A stretch of DNA of 64,000 nt from positions 33,666,001-33,730,000 of the forward strand of contig OX597832.1 in NCBI GenBank assembly GCA_951406725.2, written 5' to 3'. The stretch comes from Octopus vulgaris. Lineage: Eukaryota. Position 1 is the stretch's first letter; each line of letters starts with the position of its first letter. A program made the position numbers and the translations under genes. Below are positions 5,676 to 52,654 of the stretch, piece by piece. Below the pieces are notes generated by a model, which was given only the letters and a program-made list of their open reading frames with translations, was not told the origin of the DNA and did no database searches.

Positions 5676-5869
5676 AAAAAATTTTAATTTTCGTTAGCAT
5701 CTTCTTTCAATCATGTTTCCATTTCTTGCCGACTGTGTTCGTGACACCTAGGCCAGAGAATAGTACAATAAACACACCAGATTATGATAAAGAAAAAGGG
5801 AAAAACAGAGAGAAAAAGGAAAAAAATAATATGTAAAAAATATATAATAAAGGGGGGGGGAAAGAAAAT

Positions 5870-6148
5870 TCACCGCGACAATTCTCTTCTCAATACGTGT
5901 GATGTACCAGTTAAGACAAGCTTTTGCACTTCATGCATGGATTGGAAACCAGGGATCATTCTCATTCCAGGTGCTCCTATAACCGTTCGTATTGTAACCG
6001 TCTTCAGATGCCACATCTTTTCGATATCGATTAGCAAATCTTTATATTTTCTGAGCTCATCAAATTCTTTTGCAGAGATATTATGGTCACAGGGTATGCT
6101 CATGTCAATCAATAAACAGACTTCATTGTTTTGGTCTTTCACAACAAT
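5870..6148 (-). mobile_element. R4/Dong-like LINE 3' fragment (RLE endonuclease)
   Basis: IVVKDQNNEVCLLIDMSIPCDHNISAKEFDELRKYKDL...VIGAPG...LTGTSHVLR; closely similar peptide at 25955-26254 (+). Confidence 0.85.
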
Positions 6149-6723
6149 TGATGGAAATGCGATCCAAAAGGTTCTTCTCACTCAACTCATATGGTACCCA
6201 AACATCGTAGCGATTTGTGTACCAAAGTTTTACCAGGTGCTCATGAACAACGTATTTTGATAGATTGAGGCTTTCTGCCAATTCTCGGGTTGTGCAATGT
6301 GGGTTATTCTCAATTAATGACATGATTTGGTCATCATCAGTAGTGGATGGTCTGCATGATCGCTCTTTATCAATAAGGCTACAATCTCCAGCTCGGAACC
6401 TTGCGAGCCACTTCCGTACAGTTCTTTCGGATAAAGAAGCATCACCGTAAACTGCGCATATTTCTTTGATTGCTTGTGAGGCATTTTTTCTTTTACGGAA
6501 AAAGAAAAGCATCAAGTGCCGAAAATGAACATTCTTAACTTCCAATTTAAAGGGTTACAGAATTAGCACATGTTATAGGAACATAAACCTTCTTCCACGA
6601 AAATATAGCCTAAACTGTGCTCTAAATGGAGGTGTATTCAAATTTTATTTTATGTACACAACCATGTTCTAAAGTAAGTCGAAAGGTAAGCTACTATAAA
6701 TCAGCACGAACTTTCCGGATAAC

Positions 6724-24950: not shown

Positions 24951-27830
24951 CAACAGCAGCAGCAGTAGCAGTAGTAGTAGCAGTAGTAGTAATAATAAAA
25001 GAATACAAGCGCAGCCACAATAAAATGTGTGTGTATCTTCATTGGCTCTTATGCTGTAAATACTAATATGAAGTAACAGAGAACCGGTATGAGCAAGTAC
25101 CAAGTAAAGTTATGCGAGAAGATGAAAAAGTAACGATACTCTGGGACTATGATTTTTCAGACGGATCGTGTAATCGAACACCGTCGGCCGAATATTGTCA
25201 TATTGAATAAGAGAGATAAATACTATCATATCATTGATGTAGCCATACCAAATGACATGAATTTTGTGAGTAAAGTGGTTGAAAAAAATCACCAAGAAAT
25301 GGAAATGGCAAGATTGTATGGAATGCGAGGGGGTAATGTGAAAGTGATACCAGTGGTGATCGGGGTGTTAGGCTCAATCCATTTAAACTTCGAGACTTCT
25401 TATGGCAACTGGAAATCCCATGCAAGATTGATGTCTTGGAAAAAGGAGCCTTATTGGGCACAGCGCACATCTTAAGGAAAGTATTAATTGTTCGAGGCCC
25501 CTCTTGTGACTTGACAGATGACCAAAGGCTCCGGTGCATTTTTACATACACTGTAAAATAATAATAATAAGCTGGTGTAGACCTGGAACACACACATCAG
25601 TAGCTACGGAACTCAGGGCTAAAGGCAGAGAGTGAAGGCTGCCCAAGATCAGAGCTTATTGATCCTGAACTATCAAGCGAATATGATGAAAAATGGTGTA
25701 GACCCAAAGTGCCGACATTGCAACGATGGGATACAAAACGTACACCACCTAATCCCTGGAAGTAAGGTTTCAGCGCCTGTAGAGTACAAATCAAGACGAG
25801 GCAATATCTACATTGGATAATATGTCGGCATTATGTAATGGAAACTGCTGACAAATGGTACAAGCACCACCCTGAGGGAGAAAAATGTAACTATTCTTTG
25901 GGAATTCCCAGAATGTAAAGTCGAACCATCGAAGCAGATAAACCAGATACTGTTGTGAAAGACCAAAACAATGAAGTCTGTTTATTGATTGGCATGAGCA
26001 TACCTTGTGACGATAATATCTCGGCAAAACAATTTGTTAAGTTCAGAAAATATAAAGATTTGCTAATCGAAATCGAAAAACTGTGGCATCTCAAGAAGGT
26101 TACAATACCAGTGACTGTAGGAGCACTTGGAATGATCAAAAGAGGAGCTGAAAATTATTTAAGAATTATCCCTGGCTTACCATCCATGCAGGTAGTGCAA
26201 AAGATTGTCTTAACTTTTACGTCACACATATTGAGAAGAGCATCGTCGCTGTGAATTTTCTTTTCTTTCCTCCTTTTATTTTATTTCTTTACTTTTCAAT
26301 GTTGTAAGGAATGACCAAGGATTTGAAGGGCTGTTAACAACTATCGAAGGGCTTAGCAATGACATCAGAATGTACTTTGGACTCGACAATTTTGCTAAAG
26401 CAACTTTTGGGAAGACAAACAGTTTCCATGAAATTAAATATCAACACCACCACAAGAAAATTGCTAATACTTAGAAATAAACAAAGGCTACAATGAAGGA
26501 AACAATTTTAAAAAGGAGTACTATAGCAGAATAAGGCTTGTACTGAAGACTGAACTCAACTCTAAAATCTGCATCGAATCCATTAGCGTTCTGGCAGTTC
26601 TAAGAATCCAGTACAGTTTTAACATCATTAACTGAAATCCTACGAGACTCCAACGCCCAAACAGGAAAACAAGAAAAGTATTGACATCCAAGAACATGCA
26701 CTACCCTAAGGCAATAGTAGACCGTCTGTATCTATCTAGAAGCAGTGGTAGTGTGTGTGTAAGAGCTCCTTTATAGGAATGAACAAGTACTTATCTAGTA
26801 CGGAGATTATAATTTCGAAAGGGATCTTGGCATTGACCCTGAATTAGGTGAAGAGCTTGAAATTACTGCAAGCAAAATGAATCAAGCAAGCTGCAAAAAA
26901 GAACAGACAAAACTAAAATTCAGAAGCGTCGGGGCCAGAAGCCCCTCCTTGGACAATATACCCTCCGAAGCTAAAATGCTGATATAAACCAAGCAGCATC
27001 TTATCAGTGGCTGAGGAGCTCTGAATTGAAAGCTGAGACTGAAGGCTTCATACTGGCAGCACAAGATCAAATCTTGCTTAAGAGAAATTACGTTCTCAAA
27101 AAAAAACGGTACTGACCTTAAAAGAAAATTTTGTGACGCATTTGACACATTAGACTCCTTTGGGGATGTCCCATGCTGGCACCAAACGAATGGAAAAATC
27201 GTCACGATAGAGATAGCACAGTATTTACATTTGAAAATATGTAAACATTATAAAATCGGTAATCCTGCTTACTGGTTTGAACATAATCCTGAGTCAGTTG
27301 TTGAAGGTTAAAACGTCACCATCCTCAGAGATTTTCCAGTCAGCACTGACAGAACGATCAAGGCTAATCGACCAGACATCATTATTAAATGTATGGGGAA
27401 GAAAATTCTTGCAAACTAATAGTTGTAATTGTTCCCACTAATAAGAATATATCAGTAATGGAAATTGACAAACTTAGGGAAAACAAGGACCTGGAAATTG
27501 AATAGCAAAAGATGTGAAATCTTAAAATAAAAACTATTCTTATTATTTTTGGTACCCTATGTGTGATAAAAAAGAAGGGATTCCAGAAGCATTTAGGCGA
27601 CATCCCAATACAACCATGTCTCAAAGAAGTCCAAAAGATTTTGCTGACCAATACTGTCCACATTCTTAGAAAAACCCTATCAATTTGAATGTTTGCGTTG
27701 TATTAAATGGAGATATTTTTCTACTGCCCTCGCCAAACTTTCAGCGATATTTCAACATCTCTTAACATTCAGTTGCTCTAGGGAGATGGGTATGTCCAGG
27801 CATGAGATTGCATCAAAGATGTAAATAATA
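24820..27830 (+). mobile_element. Head-to-tail cluster of at least four 5'-truncated R4/Dong-like LINE copies
   Basis: Separate RLE pieces: 24820-24895 (MFWDFN..TD.VLETRRP); 25080-25490 (ILWDY..QTDRVIEHRRPNIV..IIDVAIP..IPVVIGVLG); 25600-26254 (AAQDQSL..CRHC..HHL..KYKDL); 26310-27690 (RT C-terminus to HILRKTLS). Confidence 0.85.
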
Positions 27831-30711: not shown

Positions 30712-30949
30712 ACAATAATAATACCAATATTAACATCTTAATATCATCATCATCATTAATCCAAAATCAAGAAGCAAGAGCTATAGCACGGAAAGCATCC
30801 GATAATTGAACGTTTAGGTCCTTACAGACAATGTAGGGTTTGCAACAAACCAGTGTAAGAAAAGCACCTTTTGTTTCGTAGCGAATAATAGGCAAACAAT
30901 TTTGCAGGACTAAGGGCTGTGAATAAATGCATATATATGTACACACACG

Positions 30950-30986
<37 letters not shown>

Positions 30987-31090
30987 TTATACTTTATATA
31001 TAGTTGAAAGTTACAGAAAAACAAAAGACGAAGACAGGTGTATGAACAACAAACAGGTGTATTAGTTTGATGCTCGGAAAGGTGAGAAAG

Positions 31091-31128
31091 TCTTTACCGT
31101 TTGGAGCGTACGCTCTTCAACAGAAGGA
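31091..31128 (-). ncRNA. Mutated paralog of the 13007 hammerhead-like motif
   Basis: CUGUUGA-A-GAGC(GUAC)GCUC-CAAAC-GGU-AAAGA; G12 and the cleavage triplet are altered. Confidence 0.45.
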
Positions 31129-36475: not shown

Positions 36476-39400
36476 CGCACTTTTTCTAAACGACCGTCAC
36501 CTGTCAGCAGGCAGCCCCAGTAAGTTGTCATGTGACACTGTCTCACCTTAACTGACTAGTAAAGGCGCGTAGTTTCAGTCCGCGCTTTTTCTAAACGACC
36601 GTCACCTGTCAGTCAGCTTGTCTCACCTAATGATGTTATTTCCCGTCGGCGTGTTTATGATTTTCAAGCCATTTTCGGTCTTTCCGCTTCAGCCATATAT
36701 AGAAGCTGGCTTTTTCTACCGCCTCCCGTACTCTCCTTATTAGTTTACGCAGCTCGGGGCTAGAAAAAACAAATCTTCTTTTGAAAAGCGTTGTCATTTT
36801 CTTTTCAATGAAGCCTCTAGCCCCCACTGCCAGGTGATAATATTCGACATTCCATCCTTGTTCTCTCCATTCTTCGATTAGCTTTTCATACCTCTTCTCC
36901 TTTCTGCATTGCCGATGTTCTCTCCCCAAGGTACTGTCAGTTCTAGTAAAATTCCCATTCTCCGGTCTCTGTTCCATAGAACTAAATCCGGTCTTTCTGT
37001 TGTTTTTATTAGTGGGAAAATTACTTGTCTTTCCAAGTCCGTGGCCATCCCCCAGTATCCCTTCCATCTTCCGTCCATCTCGTATACTTTACTTGTAGGC
37101 CTGGTTTTATAACCTTTTCCCTCCTTGTGGAAGTATACTTTCCTGCGCTTTTCTACTTTTGGGTACTCTCCCCTATTGTACCTCTCGATCTTCTTGAGTA
37201 CTGCACTTATGACGCCGAGGACTTGATTATGCCGCCATGTATATCTTTCATGTGCTAGTCTGCAACTTGACAGAACATGTCTAACCCTCACTTTCTCTCC
37301 GCATCTACACTCATCGGTTGTTTTTATGTTCCACCGGACTCAGTTCGCCGGTGAGGGTAGAATGTCGAAGGTAGACTTGATCAGGAAGGATGTTCTTGCT
37401 TGTTCCCAAGCCCAAAGTTCCCTCCATGATATTCTGCGGTTGATCACATATTCCTCCAATGTCAGGCACTGTCCCTGTTGACTGCATTGCACCAAATGTA
37501 CATTTCGCCTTCCTTCTTCCTCCTTTCTCACTTCGTATACCACTGCCTCTTTCATCTCTTTTACACTGCTCTTGCAAAATGGCCTGAAATTTTGCGACCC
37601 AGGCCGGTTCTAGCTTCTTGCGTCGCTCCGACTATATCTGCGTGCTTTAGTTTTCCGATCGCCCTGTTTACTGCCTCTTCTGCCTTCCATTTCCTCCCTG
37701 TTCGTAACTTTGGCGGGTTTTCCCGCATGCAATGATCTTTTGAATACCTTAGCATCATTACTGTCCTTGCCTTTCCTGCCTTATATTCTTCGGCGATTGA
37801 TGTTATTGGTAGTTGCAGCACGGGTTTTCCATATAGTGCAGTATTCAGTGGTTTCGGCAGACCAAGCCATTTTCTGATAAACACACTGCATCTTTGCGCC
37901 ATCCTTTCTACTCTACTCGAGGCTATTTCGTACATTTGCAATGGCCACATTATTCTTGGGTACAGCCCAAATTGCAGTATCCAACATTTGAATTTTCCCG
38001 GCAGCGTTGTTCTGTCAATTGCCTTTAATCCTTGTTCTACTAACTCGTGTGTTTCTTTCCCTTGCTCATTTAATAAATCTCTATACCATCTGCCAAGACT
38101 CTTTACTGGTTGTTCTTTCACCGTTGGTATGTCTTCACTTCCTATCCTGAATTTCACTTCTTGCCTTCCTTTCACGAAAGCCACGCTTCGAGATTTTTTG
38201 GCTTTGAATTTCATCCTTTCCCATCCTATCAGTTCGTCCAACCGCACTAACGTTCCCTCTGCTGCTTCTCTACTTTCCGATAATCTAGTTTATGTCGTCC
38301 ATAAAAGCCCTTAATGGTGTCTTTGTAACAGCTTTCTCAAAGTTTGTAGATCCCGGTAGCATTTCCATGACTAGCACGAATAAGATGACTGATATCGTGC
38401 ATCCGGCTGCAATACCTATTTCAAGCCGTTGCCACTCCGTTGTGAACTTTCATGCTGTAAATCACATCCCCAGGTTGCCGTAGTACGACATGAGCATTCG
38501 TTGAACATCTTTTGGAATCCAAAAGAAGTCCATCGCTGTTTTTATTATTACGTGCGGAACAGATCCATAAGCTTTGGCAAGATCTAGCCAAAAAATATAC
38601 AGGTTTTTCCTCATTTATTGTGCACAGGTGATGGCTTCCCAGATGGAAAATGCGTGTTCTATGCACCCAGGGATTCCGGAGATTCCTGCTTTTTGAATCG
38701 CTTCATTAACATATCCGTTATGCTGTACGAATCTTATGATTTGTCTAGCAATTATTCCGAACATGATTTCCTCGTCTGTATTTAGTAGTGGAATTGGTCT
38801 AAATTGGCCTAGTGTTTTTGCCTCTTTTTCTTTAGGTAGATAGATACCTTCGGCTATACACCATCGCTCCGCTACATCTTTCTTCTTCCACATTTCTCTT
38901 ATCAGTGCAAACAGCTGCAAACGTAATTTCGGGCAATATTTATATACCCTGTAGCTCACTCCATCGTTCCCTGGTGCACTTTTCGCTCTTGCTTTCCTTA
39001 TGAACTCATCCATTTCTTTCCGTTTGATGTCACTCAAATCAAATGGTACTCTTGGTTCAGGTGGTTTCTTCAGTCCGTGCATTTCTGGGAGTACTTCATT
39101 TCTATCCGAGTCGCTGTATGTCTCTTTCAGATGTTGTTCGAGCTCTTCTTTCGTGCAATCCAATTTTCCGCTTTTACTTTCAGTAAATAGATGTTTCGCA
39201 TATTGATAGGGATTGTTCACAAAGCTACGATAGTTTTTTTCTCTCTCCTTTCTTCTGCTCCTCCTTCTTTGTTTTCTTAGCAGATCTCGATGCCTCATTT
39301 TTATCTCTTCAGATAGTTGCTTTAGCCCTTCTCTTTCCTCCTCTTTTGCATCCATCCATCTGGTTCTGAGTTTTTTCTTCTCTTCTCGAATCTTTGCGAT

Positions 39401-39585
39401 CTGTTTTTCTCTCCTCGATGGCACGTTCTTTGCCGTTGATTCTACCTTCCCTGTTGTTTTCAGTCCAAATCTTTTCTCTCCTTCCTGGTAGATTGTATTA
39501 GCCAGGTCTTCAAGCTTTTGTTCATCGTCGCCTTTGAATTTGGTGGTCATTCTTGCTACCTCGTCGTCAAATTTTTTATAACTCG
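36476..39585 (-). mobile_element. R2-superfamily (HERO/NeSL-like) non-LTR retrotransposon, 5'-truncated and frameshifted
   Basis: Successive ORFs: KSAPGNDG, QFRPIPLLN, QKAGISGIPGCIEH, LDLAKAYGSV, GIAAGCTIS, RAFMDD, CCHC knuckle (CRCGE..HVLSSC), RYTWRHNQVL, RPDLVLW..LLELTVPW..K..Y, GARGF; stop at 36636 followed by a short 3' UTR. Confidence 0.92.
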
Positions 39586-39597
39586 TAAAATTTTTAT

Positions 39598-39990
39598 AAC
39601 TCATAAATAATTAGGAATTTATTTTACTACCTTTTTTGAACACTTTTATGTAAACTGTTTAAACCAAAAGCCTCTCTTAACATTTTCTTATCTTTGTCAA
39701 AAATTCTGTTTCTTATTCTTATCAAAGACACTATCACTGTATTTTAATACATCTACGTTAACAATTTTTAACAACACAACGGCTACACAAAGCCTTACAT
39801 TTTACTTTTGAAATGATTCACATTGATGTATTAAAATACAGTGATAGAGACTTTGATAAGGATAAGAAAATGTTAAGAAATAGAATCTTTGACAAAGATA
39901 AGAAAATGTTTAGAGGGTGTTTGTGTTTAAACAGTTTACATAAAGTGTTCAAAAAAGGTAGTAAAATAAATTCATAATTATTTATAAGTT
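39598..39990. repeat. Long imperfect inverted repeat (arms about 155-165 bp), MITE/foldback-like
   Basis: 39598-39753 is reverse-complementary to 39825-39990, e.g. gaatttattttactaccttttttgaacac / gtgttcaaaaaaggtagtaaaataaattc. Confidence 0.9.
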
Positions 39991-40204
39991 CATCAAAAAT
40001 CATGATTGTATAGAAGCACATAAATAATTCGTAGACAGCATTTGATAGGAGAAAGCGTGTATTGCTTTGTCAAACTTCATCAGAAACCATATTTAAGTAT
40101 TTATACAGAATTTTAGGGGAATGACCAACCATGTTTATTCATCTCCAGTCTTGTACGTGTGTTTAGCAAGGATGGTTGCTATTTTTAGAAATAGTGTGGA
40201 CGGT

Positions 40205-41152: not shown

Positions 41153-41187
41153 GTTTGACGTTTCGAGCGGAGCTCTTCGTCGGAAAC
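41153..41187 (-). ncRNA. Minimal hammerhead-like fold, variant core CCGACGA
   Basis: GUUU-CCGACGA-A-GAGC(UCC)GCUC-GAAAC-GUC-AAAC. Confidence 0.6.
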
Positions 41188-51641: not shown

Positions 51642-51707
<66 letters not shown>

Positions 51708-51720
51708 CGGGCTGGTTGCC

Positions 51721-51767
51721 CGCGACAGACGATGAGCCAAGAAGCTCGAAAATGAGTCAGTCTCGCG
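51721..51767 (+). ncRNA. Degenerate type I hammerhead-like fold
   Basis: CGCGA-CAGACGA-U-GAGC(CAAGAA)GCUC-GAAA-A-UGAGUCA-GUC-UCGCG: 5-bp helix I, 4-bp helix II; U4A and C15.2A substitutions. Confidence 0.5.
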
Positions 51768-51930
51768 ATACCGTTGTCTGCTAGAGGACGATAGGGGTTC
51801 GCTTCTCTTGCTAGCAATATCTATAGTCTATAAAGTGTGCAGCGTCGCACCGGTAACCAATTAGCGGCCGATGTGTCTGGGGTTAAACTAGTAGCAACAT
51901 GGAACAGTCACTTTGACGGGCGATTGATTT

Positions 51931-51970
<40 letters not shown>

Positions 51971-52492
51971 GCGAGAAAGAAGCAACAAGAATGGATAAGT
52001 TTTTAGTACAATCGTTTCATACAAAGACAGGCTTTATTAAAAGTTGCAAAAATTGCAGCATATAAACGTGTCCCGTACTCATCAGCTAAAATACATGTGA
52101 CTTCTCTAGACATCTTAGTGGTTGAGGCTATACTCATGAAGTAATGTAGATAATTAAGTAACATAAACAGATTTCCAAAGTTCATTAAAGTTCTTTAAAG
52201 ATGATGTACAGTCTTATCACAGATTTTTTAAAAAGTTTTAATAGCATCACAGAGAAGGTGACTTAATCCATAGTGTACATATGAATTTCCAGAGATATGA
52301 GGAGGGATTACATACTCACAGACGACAAATTTATCCATGGCTAATCACAACGAGGTGGGTCTCAATTCCTGCTTGAGTACGGGAGTACGGGACACGTTTA
52401 TATGCTGCAATTTTTGCAACTTTTAATAAAGCCTGTCTTTGTATGAAACGATTGTACTAAAAACTTATCCATTCTTGTTGCTTCTTTCTCGC
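51971..52492. repeat. Perfect 110-bp inverted repeat with 302-bp spacer (Penelope-like inverted pseudo-LTR arrangement)
   Basis: 51971-52080 is the exact reverse complement of 52383-52492; the wider element (about 51971-52610) is bounded by (TA)n on both sides. Confidence 0.92.
52001..52091 (-). ncRNA. Type I hammerhead ribozyme (near-canonical)
   Basis: UUUUAG-CUGAUGA-GUACGGGACA...UGUCUUUGUAU-GAAAC-GAUU-GUA-CUAAAA: 6-bp helix I, extended helix II (closing pair G-U), 2-bp helix III; predicted cleavage between 52007 and 52006. Confidence 0.8.
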
Positions 52493-52609
52493 TTATAATC
52501 ACCCCACATTACTGTATTGTTAAAACCGTATAGTTTTTTGGTGCATCTAAGTTAGGTACCATATTCAAGTAAATTCATTAAAATTGACTTGAATCTTTAT
52601 TGCTTTTTG

Positions 52610-52654
<45 letters not shown>

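Follow-up and report, generated by a model that had tools for sequence, protein, structure and literature searches.

The insertion unit described here occupies about 51971-52609 of the 64,000-nucleotide window (the whole stretch of DNA that was analysed), where it is bounded by two (TA)n tracts (Table 1). The window is AT-rich and microsatellite-rich, with 92 tracts of at least six TA units. Between the bounding tracts, a truncated copy of 404 bp meets, head to head, a 235-bp inverted piece derived from the same 3' end. Self-comparison of the window recovered the perfect inverted repeat reported in a preliminary description of this DNA, with 110 bp paired from 51971/52492 to 52080/52383, no mismatch and 302 nt between the arms; in a separate comparison the repeat stretched to 115 nt at 99%. 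The 8-bp tandem duplication gagtacgg was likewise present at the junction, whereas the description of the right arm as devoid of the CUGAUGA strand was correct for the 5' strand of helix I and for C3-U7, but not for G8-A9, which the arm keeps. Stops were found in all six frames of the spacer, and the unit, which is truncated or non-autonomous, holds no open frame; no frame for a reverse transcriptase (RT) or a GIY-YIG endonuclease was linked to the family. The spacer is probably a 3' UTR/pLTR or a non-autonomous body; a coding spacer was rejected, as the majority letters of the family, compared by eye, clear one stop of minus frame 1 and leave the others in place.

Table 1. Coordinates of the insertion unit, its parts and the two bounding tracts.
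Feature	Positions	Strand	Remark
Left (TA)17 tract, presumed target	51936-51969		
5'-truncated copy, element sense: non-coding body, hammerhead and 30-nt 3' end	51971-52374	-	
Left arm of the perfect 110-bp inverted repeat	51971-52080		
Type I hammerhead motif	52001-52091	-	GUA site; cut at 52007/52006 if active
Spacer: family body upstream of the hammerhead	52081-52374	-	Family contigs in 4/4 runs
Head-to-head joint; its 8-bp tandem duplication begins at core G8	52375-52390	+	
Right arm: G8, helix II, GAAA, helix III, cleavage strand and 3' end, inverted	52383-52492	+	
Extension ("tail") of the inverted copy, about 115 nt, family sequence	52493-52609	+	
Right (TA)11 tract, presumed second half of target	52610-52631		

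Read on the minus strand from 52091 to 52001, the hammerhead motif consists of a 6-bp helix I, CUGAUGA, a 60-nt helix II region, GAAA, helix III, the GUA site and the closing strand of helix I. The core positions C3-A9, G12-A14, A15.1-U16.1 and H17 and the three helices were all present, with G10.1-U11.1 in place of the usual G-C. This G-U pair closes a long, branched helix II with no extra nucleotide between A9 and 10.1, and helix III is made of 2 bp with a 4-nt loop, inside a self-complementary 8-mer. A strict descriptor gave one match on both strands of the 64 kb and none in 300 dinucleotide shuffles, indicating that the motif is not a chance occurrence and bearing out the complete minus-strand hammerhead with a GUA site that had been proposed. 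The epithet near-canonical was generous, in view of the G10.1-U11.1 closing pair, the 60-nt helix II and two computational results. First, Rfam yielded nothing at gathering score in the window and no hammerhead match for 52001-52091 even at E 10, and for window positions 1-49000 no hammerhead appeared among the 150 of 204 matches listed, nearly all of them microsatellite-driven. Second, the minimum free energy (MFE) of the motif was no better than that of shuffled sequence (z 0.19); pair probabilities in the isolated 91-mer were mostly 0.6-0.8 for inner helix II, about 0.5 for helix I and 0.02 for helix III. A literature search found no paper on the activity of hammerheads with G10.1-U11.1.

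Several further features were recorded elsewhere in the window. Roughly 210 nt away from the motif described above, the plus strand carries a degenerate, unrelated hammerhead at 51707-51787 (Rfam HH9, 25.1 bits, E 0.001, short of the gathering score of 52). It has U4 changed to A and an extra U after A9, and belongs to a block of 230 bp that has (TG)n on one side and (TA)n on the other. Two relics of minimal hammerheads of the type found in Penelope-like elements (PLEs), with core starts at 41183 and 13039 on the minus strand and one core mismatch each, are mutually related by eye and lie near (TA)n tracts; the segment 12834-13044 has a 76% relative at 30923-31128. On the minus strand at 37561-39610, frames of 331 and 242 aa have, by eye, the look of a broken non-LTR retrotransposon RT, with no Pfam match at E 0.01, and at the 5' edge of this fragment a 408-bp segment (39591-39998) matches its own reverse complement at 78%, being perhaps an old MITE or fold-back. 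The helix-turn-helix (HTH) of a Mariner/Mos1-type transposase was identified at 6126-6554 on the minus strand (Pfam HTH_48, E 3.5e-20), and 5833-6146 has an inverted 80% relative at 25951-26292. The mariner HTH was the only domain to pass Pfam cut-offs among the 100 of 227 frames of at least 75 aa that were searched, low-complexity frames having been dropped. No host exon was recognised in the window by this approach, which would miss short exons.

Parts of the stretch were found in 20 of 24 listed sequencing runs, belonging to eight studies and three organism labels, one run possibly being the source sample. Contigs from four of these (X1, X2, X3 and X10) were mapped to 52081-52607, a target with only one arm that avoids ambiguous placement, and 2956, 730, 750 and 56 family contigs were obtained, respectively; summed depth over these contigs does not equal copy number. 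Body, arm and extension are one high-copy repeat, of which the window holds no second copy. The loose ends of contigs before 52383 restored an intact core (14 contigs in X1, 4 in X10), while those behind 52374 entered a different sequence (12 in X1, 2 in X10), which fixes the break at 52374/52375. Judged by eye from these loose ends, the sequence into which the family continues past 52374 is similar to 52242-52267, hinting at an internal repeat, about 133 bp long, within the body of the element. At the other end, 19 X1 contigs ran into (TA)n behind 52497, indicating that the left arm stops at a common family end, and other copies continued through the extension. Divergent contigs (X3 record 29, X2 record 20) spanned 52492/52493 with at least 31 letters on each side; in X1, X2 and X3, coverage of the extension reached 52607. 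The segment 52493-52609, previously taken as the right flank of a unit ending at 52492, is therefore family sequence, and since (TA)n begins at 52610, the insertion extends over about 51971-52609 inside a TA tract.

No alternative letter at 5% or more was among those listed at U11.1 (52444) or A17 (52456), and a single variant position at that level was listed in 52383-52449, so that the long helix II, the GUA site and the G-U pair belong to the family as such and do not reflect decay. A G>A allele at 52450, which makes the 8-mer of helix III a perfect palindrome, accounted for 42%, 64% and 53% of the summed depth in X1, X2 and X3, respectively, and the window allele of this 8-mer self-pairs at all 8 positions (-5.8 kcal/mol). 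The arm segment 52421-52492 was identical to a deep X3 contig with no other letter (record 27), an identity that fits a putative young subfamily. The mismatch-free arms had earlier been read as evidence of a recent origin; zero mismatches in 110 positions sets only an upper bound of 2.7% on their later divergence (95%). The exact 28-nt pattern of the arm had no match in metagenome contigs, and a short core pattern found at four loci in viral contigs was rejected as chance matches with no further likeness.

Two further head-to-head joints were listed, one from 52127 to 52493 in X2 with an overlap of 0, and one from 52277 to 52475 in X1 and X3 with an overlap of 18, so that the three junctions have inverted repeats of 0, 18 and 110 nt; in the one at the locus, the inverted piece ends at G8 and stutters. 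The other listed joint was a plain deletion. These joints are weak, being supported by single contigs whose shorter side has 22-28 letters; the two head-to-head joints comprise three contigs with 22-25 letters on that side, a likeness of 85 and an unreliability flag. The 52374/52375 junction itself was bridged by none of the 32 contig pieces listed out of 4530.

The Penelope-like affiliation put forward in the preliminary description was supported by the anatomy of the unit and the literature, which make the family a putative member. PLEs are described as typically having microsatellite targets, a tail on one side and inverted copies truncated at the 5' end (PMC8557442), and the locus presents a 5'-truncated copy with an inverted copy at its 5' end and a type I hammerhead in the terminal repeat with a short palindromic helix III. 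The one-sided extension of the inverted copy, a putative tail, is about 115 nt long, as against the 30-40 bp given for tails in PMC8557442. Nearly all Hydra-clade families tabulated in the supplement of that paper prefer (TA)n and bear a sense hammerhead near the 3' end. Both ends of the unit lie in (TA)n, although this target does not single out the Hydra clade, because Naiads share the preference. Penelope-13_HM, as presented in PMC8557442, resembles the locus in its (TA)n target, the G-U pair closing helix II, the A at the cleavage site and the inverted 5' copy, and has a hammerhead on both strands. The locus departs from the Hydra clade in the 115-nt tail, in having no visible ORF, in an inverted copy that breaks inside the core, and in the distance between core halves, which is 60 nt here and about 10-25 in the Hydra rows of File S2 (PMC8557442). 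No sequence match was seen when a few published Naiad and Hydra consensus ends were compared by eye.

A side observation concerns the Naiads themselves. In File S5 of PMC8557442, five nematode Naiad ends, including Naiad-1, -2 and -3_Nbra, were by eye complete hammerheads with the strand order helix I-CUGANGA-helix II, helix III-GUC-helix I and helix II-GAAA-helix III, which is not a circular permutation; their stems differ yet pair, and 2-5 nt link helix I to helix II. The same paper lists nematode Naiads mostly as HHR_core or HHR_half_core, and they are said there to lack canonical hammerheads. A literature search on this strand order found no paper.

The motif at the locus shares its type I arrangement and short palindromic helix III with the minimal hammerheads of PLEs (PMC4209133), but these have a conserved G-C where the locus has G10.1-U11.1, and the locus differs from them in having no extra nucleotide between A9 and 10.1 and a long branched helix II. 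The supplement of PMC8557442 shows a long helix II region, marked as deviating, for Selaginella PLE-X1. The locus is otherwise ordinary, the 60-nt branched helix II alone being unusual; in truncated PLEs, mostly with solo motifs, pairs of opposite-strand hammerheads are reported 100-700 bp apart (PMC4209133). PLE hammerheads with a short palindromic helix III are reported to cut weakly, as dimers (PMC4209133, PMC6765202), and one PLE hammerhead needed its protein (PMC11167929). When modelled without the right arm, the strict hammerhead fold had a probability of 0.002 alone and 7e-6 with the spacer, a weak monomer fold in line with these reports. We infer that the hammerhead would be the pLTR ribozyme inherited by the family, of the weak kind thought to cut as a dimer, and a passenger at this locus.

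Taken together, the locus is probably a single insertion of a high-copy hammerhead retroelement, either PLE-like, with most similarity to the (TA)n-targeting Hydra clade, or a non-autonomous derivative of such an element. In the proposed sequence of events, a nuclease would nick both strands of the TA tract. The plus strand from 51971 would be cDNA whose synthesis was primed at the left tract, on RNA sequence 30 nt beyond the hammerhead (52492-97, TA-like and a frequent end of family copies). The minus strand, read from 52609, would be cDNA primed at the right tract from a position lying a further 115 nt along the RNA. Synthesis would have halted at 52374 in one cDNA and, with an 8-nt slip, at 52383 in the other before the two were end-joined. 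The duplication, a single event, hints that the cDNA slipped to a GA dinucleotide 8 nt off and stopped a second time at G8/U7. Because the same 110 nt occur in both cDNAs, either two RNA molecules (dual priming) or the re-use of one would be needed, and arms made in this way would be identical at birth. Purified PLE protein has been reported to cut and extend both strands, with two RT start sites bounding the tail (PMC11167929). Twin or dual priming of L1 likewise produces two opposite-strand cDNAs joined head to head (PMC2837659); twin priming gives abutting or deleted pieces, whereas the pieces here overlap by 110 nt, which dual priming would permit, and the locus further differs from L1 in its missing poly(A) and its (TA)n target. 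The X2 joint, in which the pieces abut exactly at 52492/52493, resembles L1 twin priming.

In an alternative view, the family would be a satellite or a tandem non-LTR retrozyme, and the inversion would postdate insertion, having arisen by fold-back repair or by template switching during replication. Type I hammerheads are found in animal retrozymes, which have been proposed to derive from PLEs (PMC7229834, bioRxiv 10.64898/2026.07.22.740005), and non-LTR retrozymes are like this family in being non-coding, high-copy and low in GC; the hint of an internal repeat and an 8-bp stutter that could be a repair scar would also agree with this origin. Nevertheless, retrozymes are head-to-tail tandems of 170-400 nt, whereas the locus is a solo head-to-head pair with one full motif, no tandem hammerhead units were found in the window, and both outer ends lie in (TA)n. 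Moreover, a fold-back on the left copy would enter the left (TA)n and cannot yield the 115-nt extension, which is missing on the left; nor could a fold-back of the first cDNA supply it, whereas two primings on opposite strands followed by end-joining could. A retrozyme origin is thus considered unlikely.

An assembly artefact, in which a chimeric read or the merging of two family copies would have produced the joint at 52374/52383, appears somewhat less likely still. The very high copy number, the flanking microsatellites and the identical arms would all favor misassembly, PLE inversions are reported to trouble assemblies (PMC8557442), and the summed depth dips in the bin of the junction, which is the one bridged by none of the listed contig pieces. 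Against this, thousands of family contigs would be expected to mask a single-copy junction, and the one-sided extension and 8-bp stutter make the arms asymmetric, unlike a fold-back read; similar, if weak, joints were also found in three other runs.

RNA folding was modelled for the insertion. The full core is present on the minus strand only, the plus-strand transcript having no complete core. With both arms included, the ensemble free energy was -244.6 kcal/mol, compared with -135.3 kcal/mol when the hammerhead was enforced, a gap of about 109 kcal/mol that corresponds to a modelled hammerhead-fold probability of about 1e-77. The antisense arm is transcribed first and pairs with the motif before GAAA and the cleavage strand exist: folding of successive prefixes, an equilibrium calculation and not a kinetic simulation, gave arm-to-arm pairing of 0.46 when 13 nt of the left arm were present, rising to 0.96 at 17 nt. 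Folding therefore upheld the 110-bp duplex that had been predicted for a read-through RNA, but not its supposed alternation with a ribozyme as two exclusive states, given the energy gap and the order of transcription. According to these models there is no second populated state in the read-through RNA, a ribozyme could form only in another transcript starting inside the spacer, and the read-through RNA, if transcribed, would plausibly be an inert duplex that could, at best, give rise to siRNAs or A-to-I edits. A functional RNA switch between an active ribozyme and the duplex is very improbable, for although the folds are mutually exclusive on paper and the core is intact, the same gap and the same order of synthesis apply to the only strand that bears the core, the model gives low values for the full fold and for helix III even when the motif is alone, and no sign of selection on the locus was found.

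In Drosophila, rearranged Penelope copies yield siRNAs that match their inverted regions (PMC3681739), and on read-through the inverted arms described here would likewise give dsRNA. No RNA dataset was identified among the listed runs with the stretch, X10 being a putative RNA run. The X10 contigs cover the body, the intact core and the arm, with one spanning the cleavage site and none from 52513 onward; in these contigs, which pool all copies of the family, no A>G or T>C change was listed in the arm except at 52465, where it is the main DNA allele.

More tentatively, and with a probability well short of even, the data may point to an undescribed, young, very high-copy PLE-derived family, present under three organism labels, in which helix II would be a functional domain and two fixed priming sites, 115 nt apart, would serve opposite (TA)n strands. 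The length of the inverted repeat (the three values given above) would then be set by how far the distal cDNA runs, with the core acting as a stop.

The locus is one of very many copies, and its layout is a published one. The long helix II has a practical consequence, since Rfam and short-loop descriptors miss such hammerheads. The formation of the inverted ends and of the tails of PLEs is still called open in PMC8557442 and PMC11167929, and the way such ends arise could be counted in a high-copy family that offers two priming ends together with numerous inversion junctions. If the more tentative reading of two fixed priming sites is true, the inversions would record this open step of PLE integration, at thousands of loci that would be directly countable.
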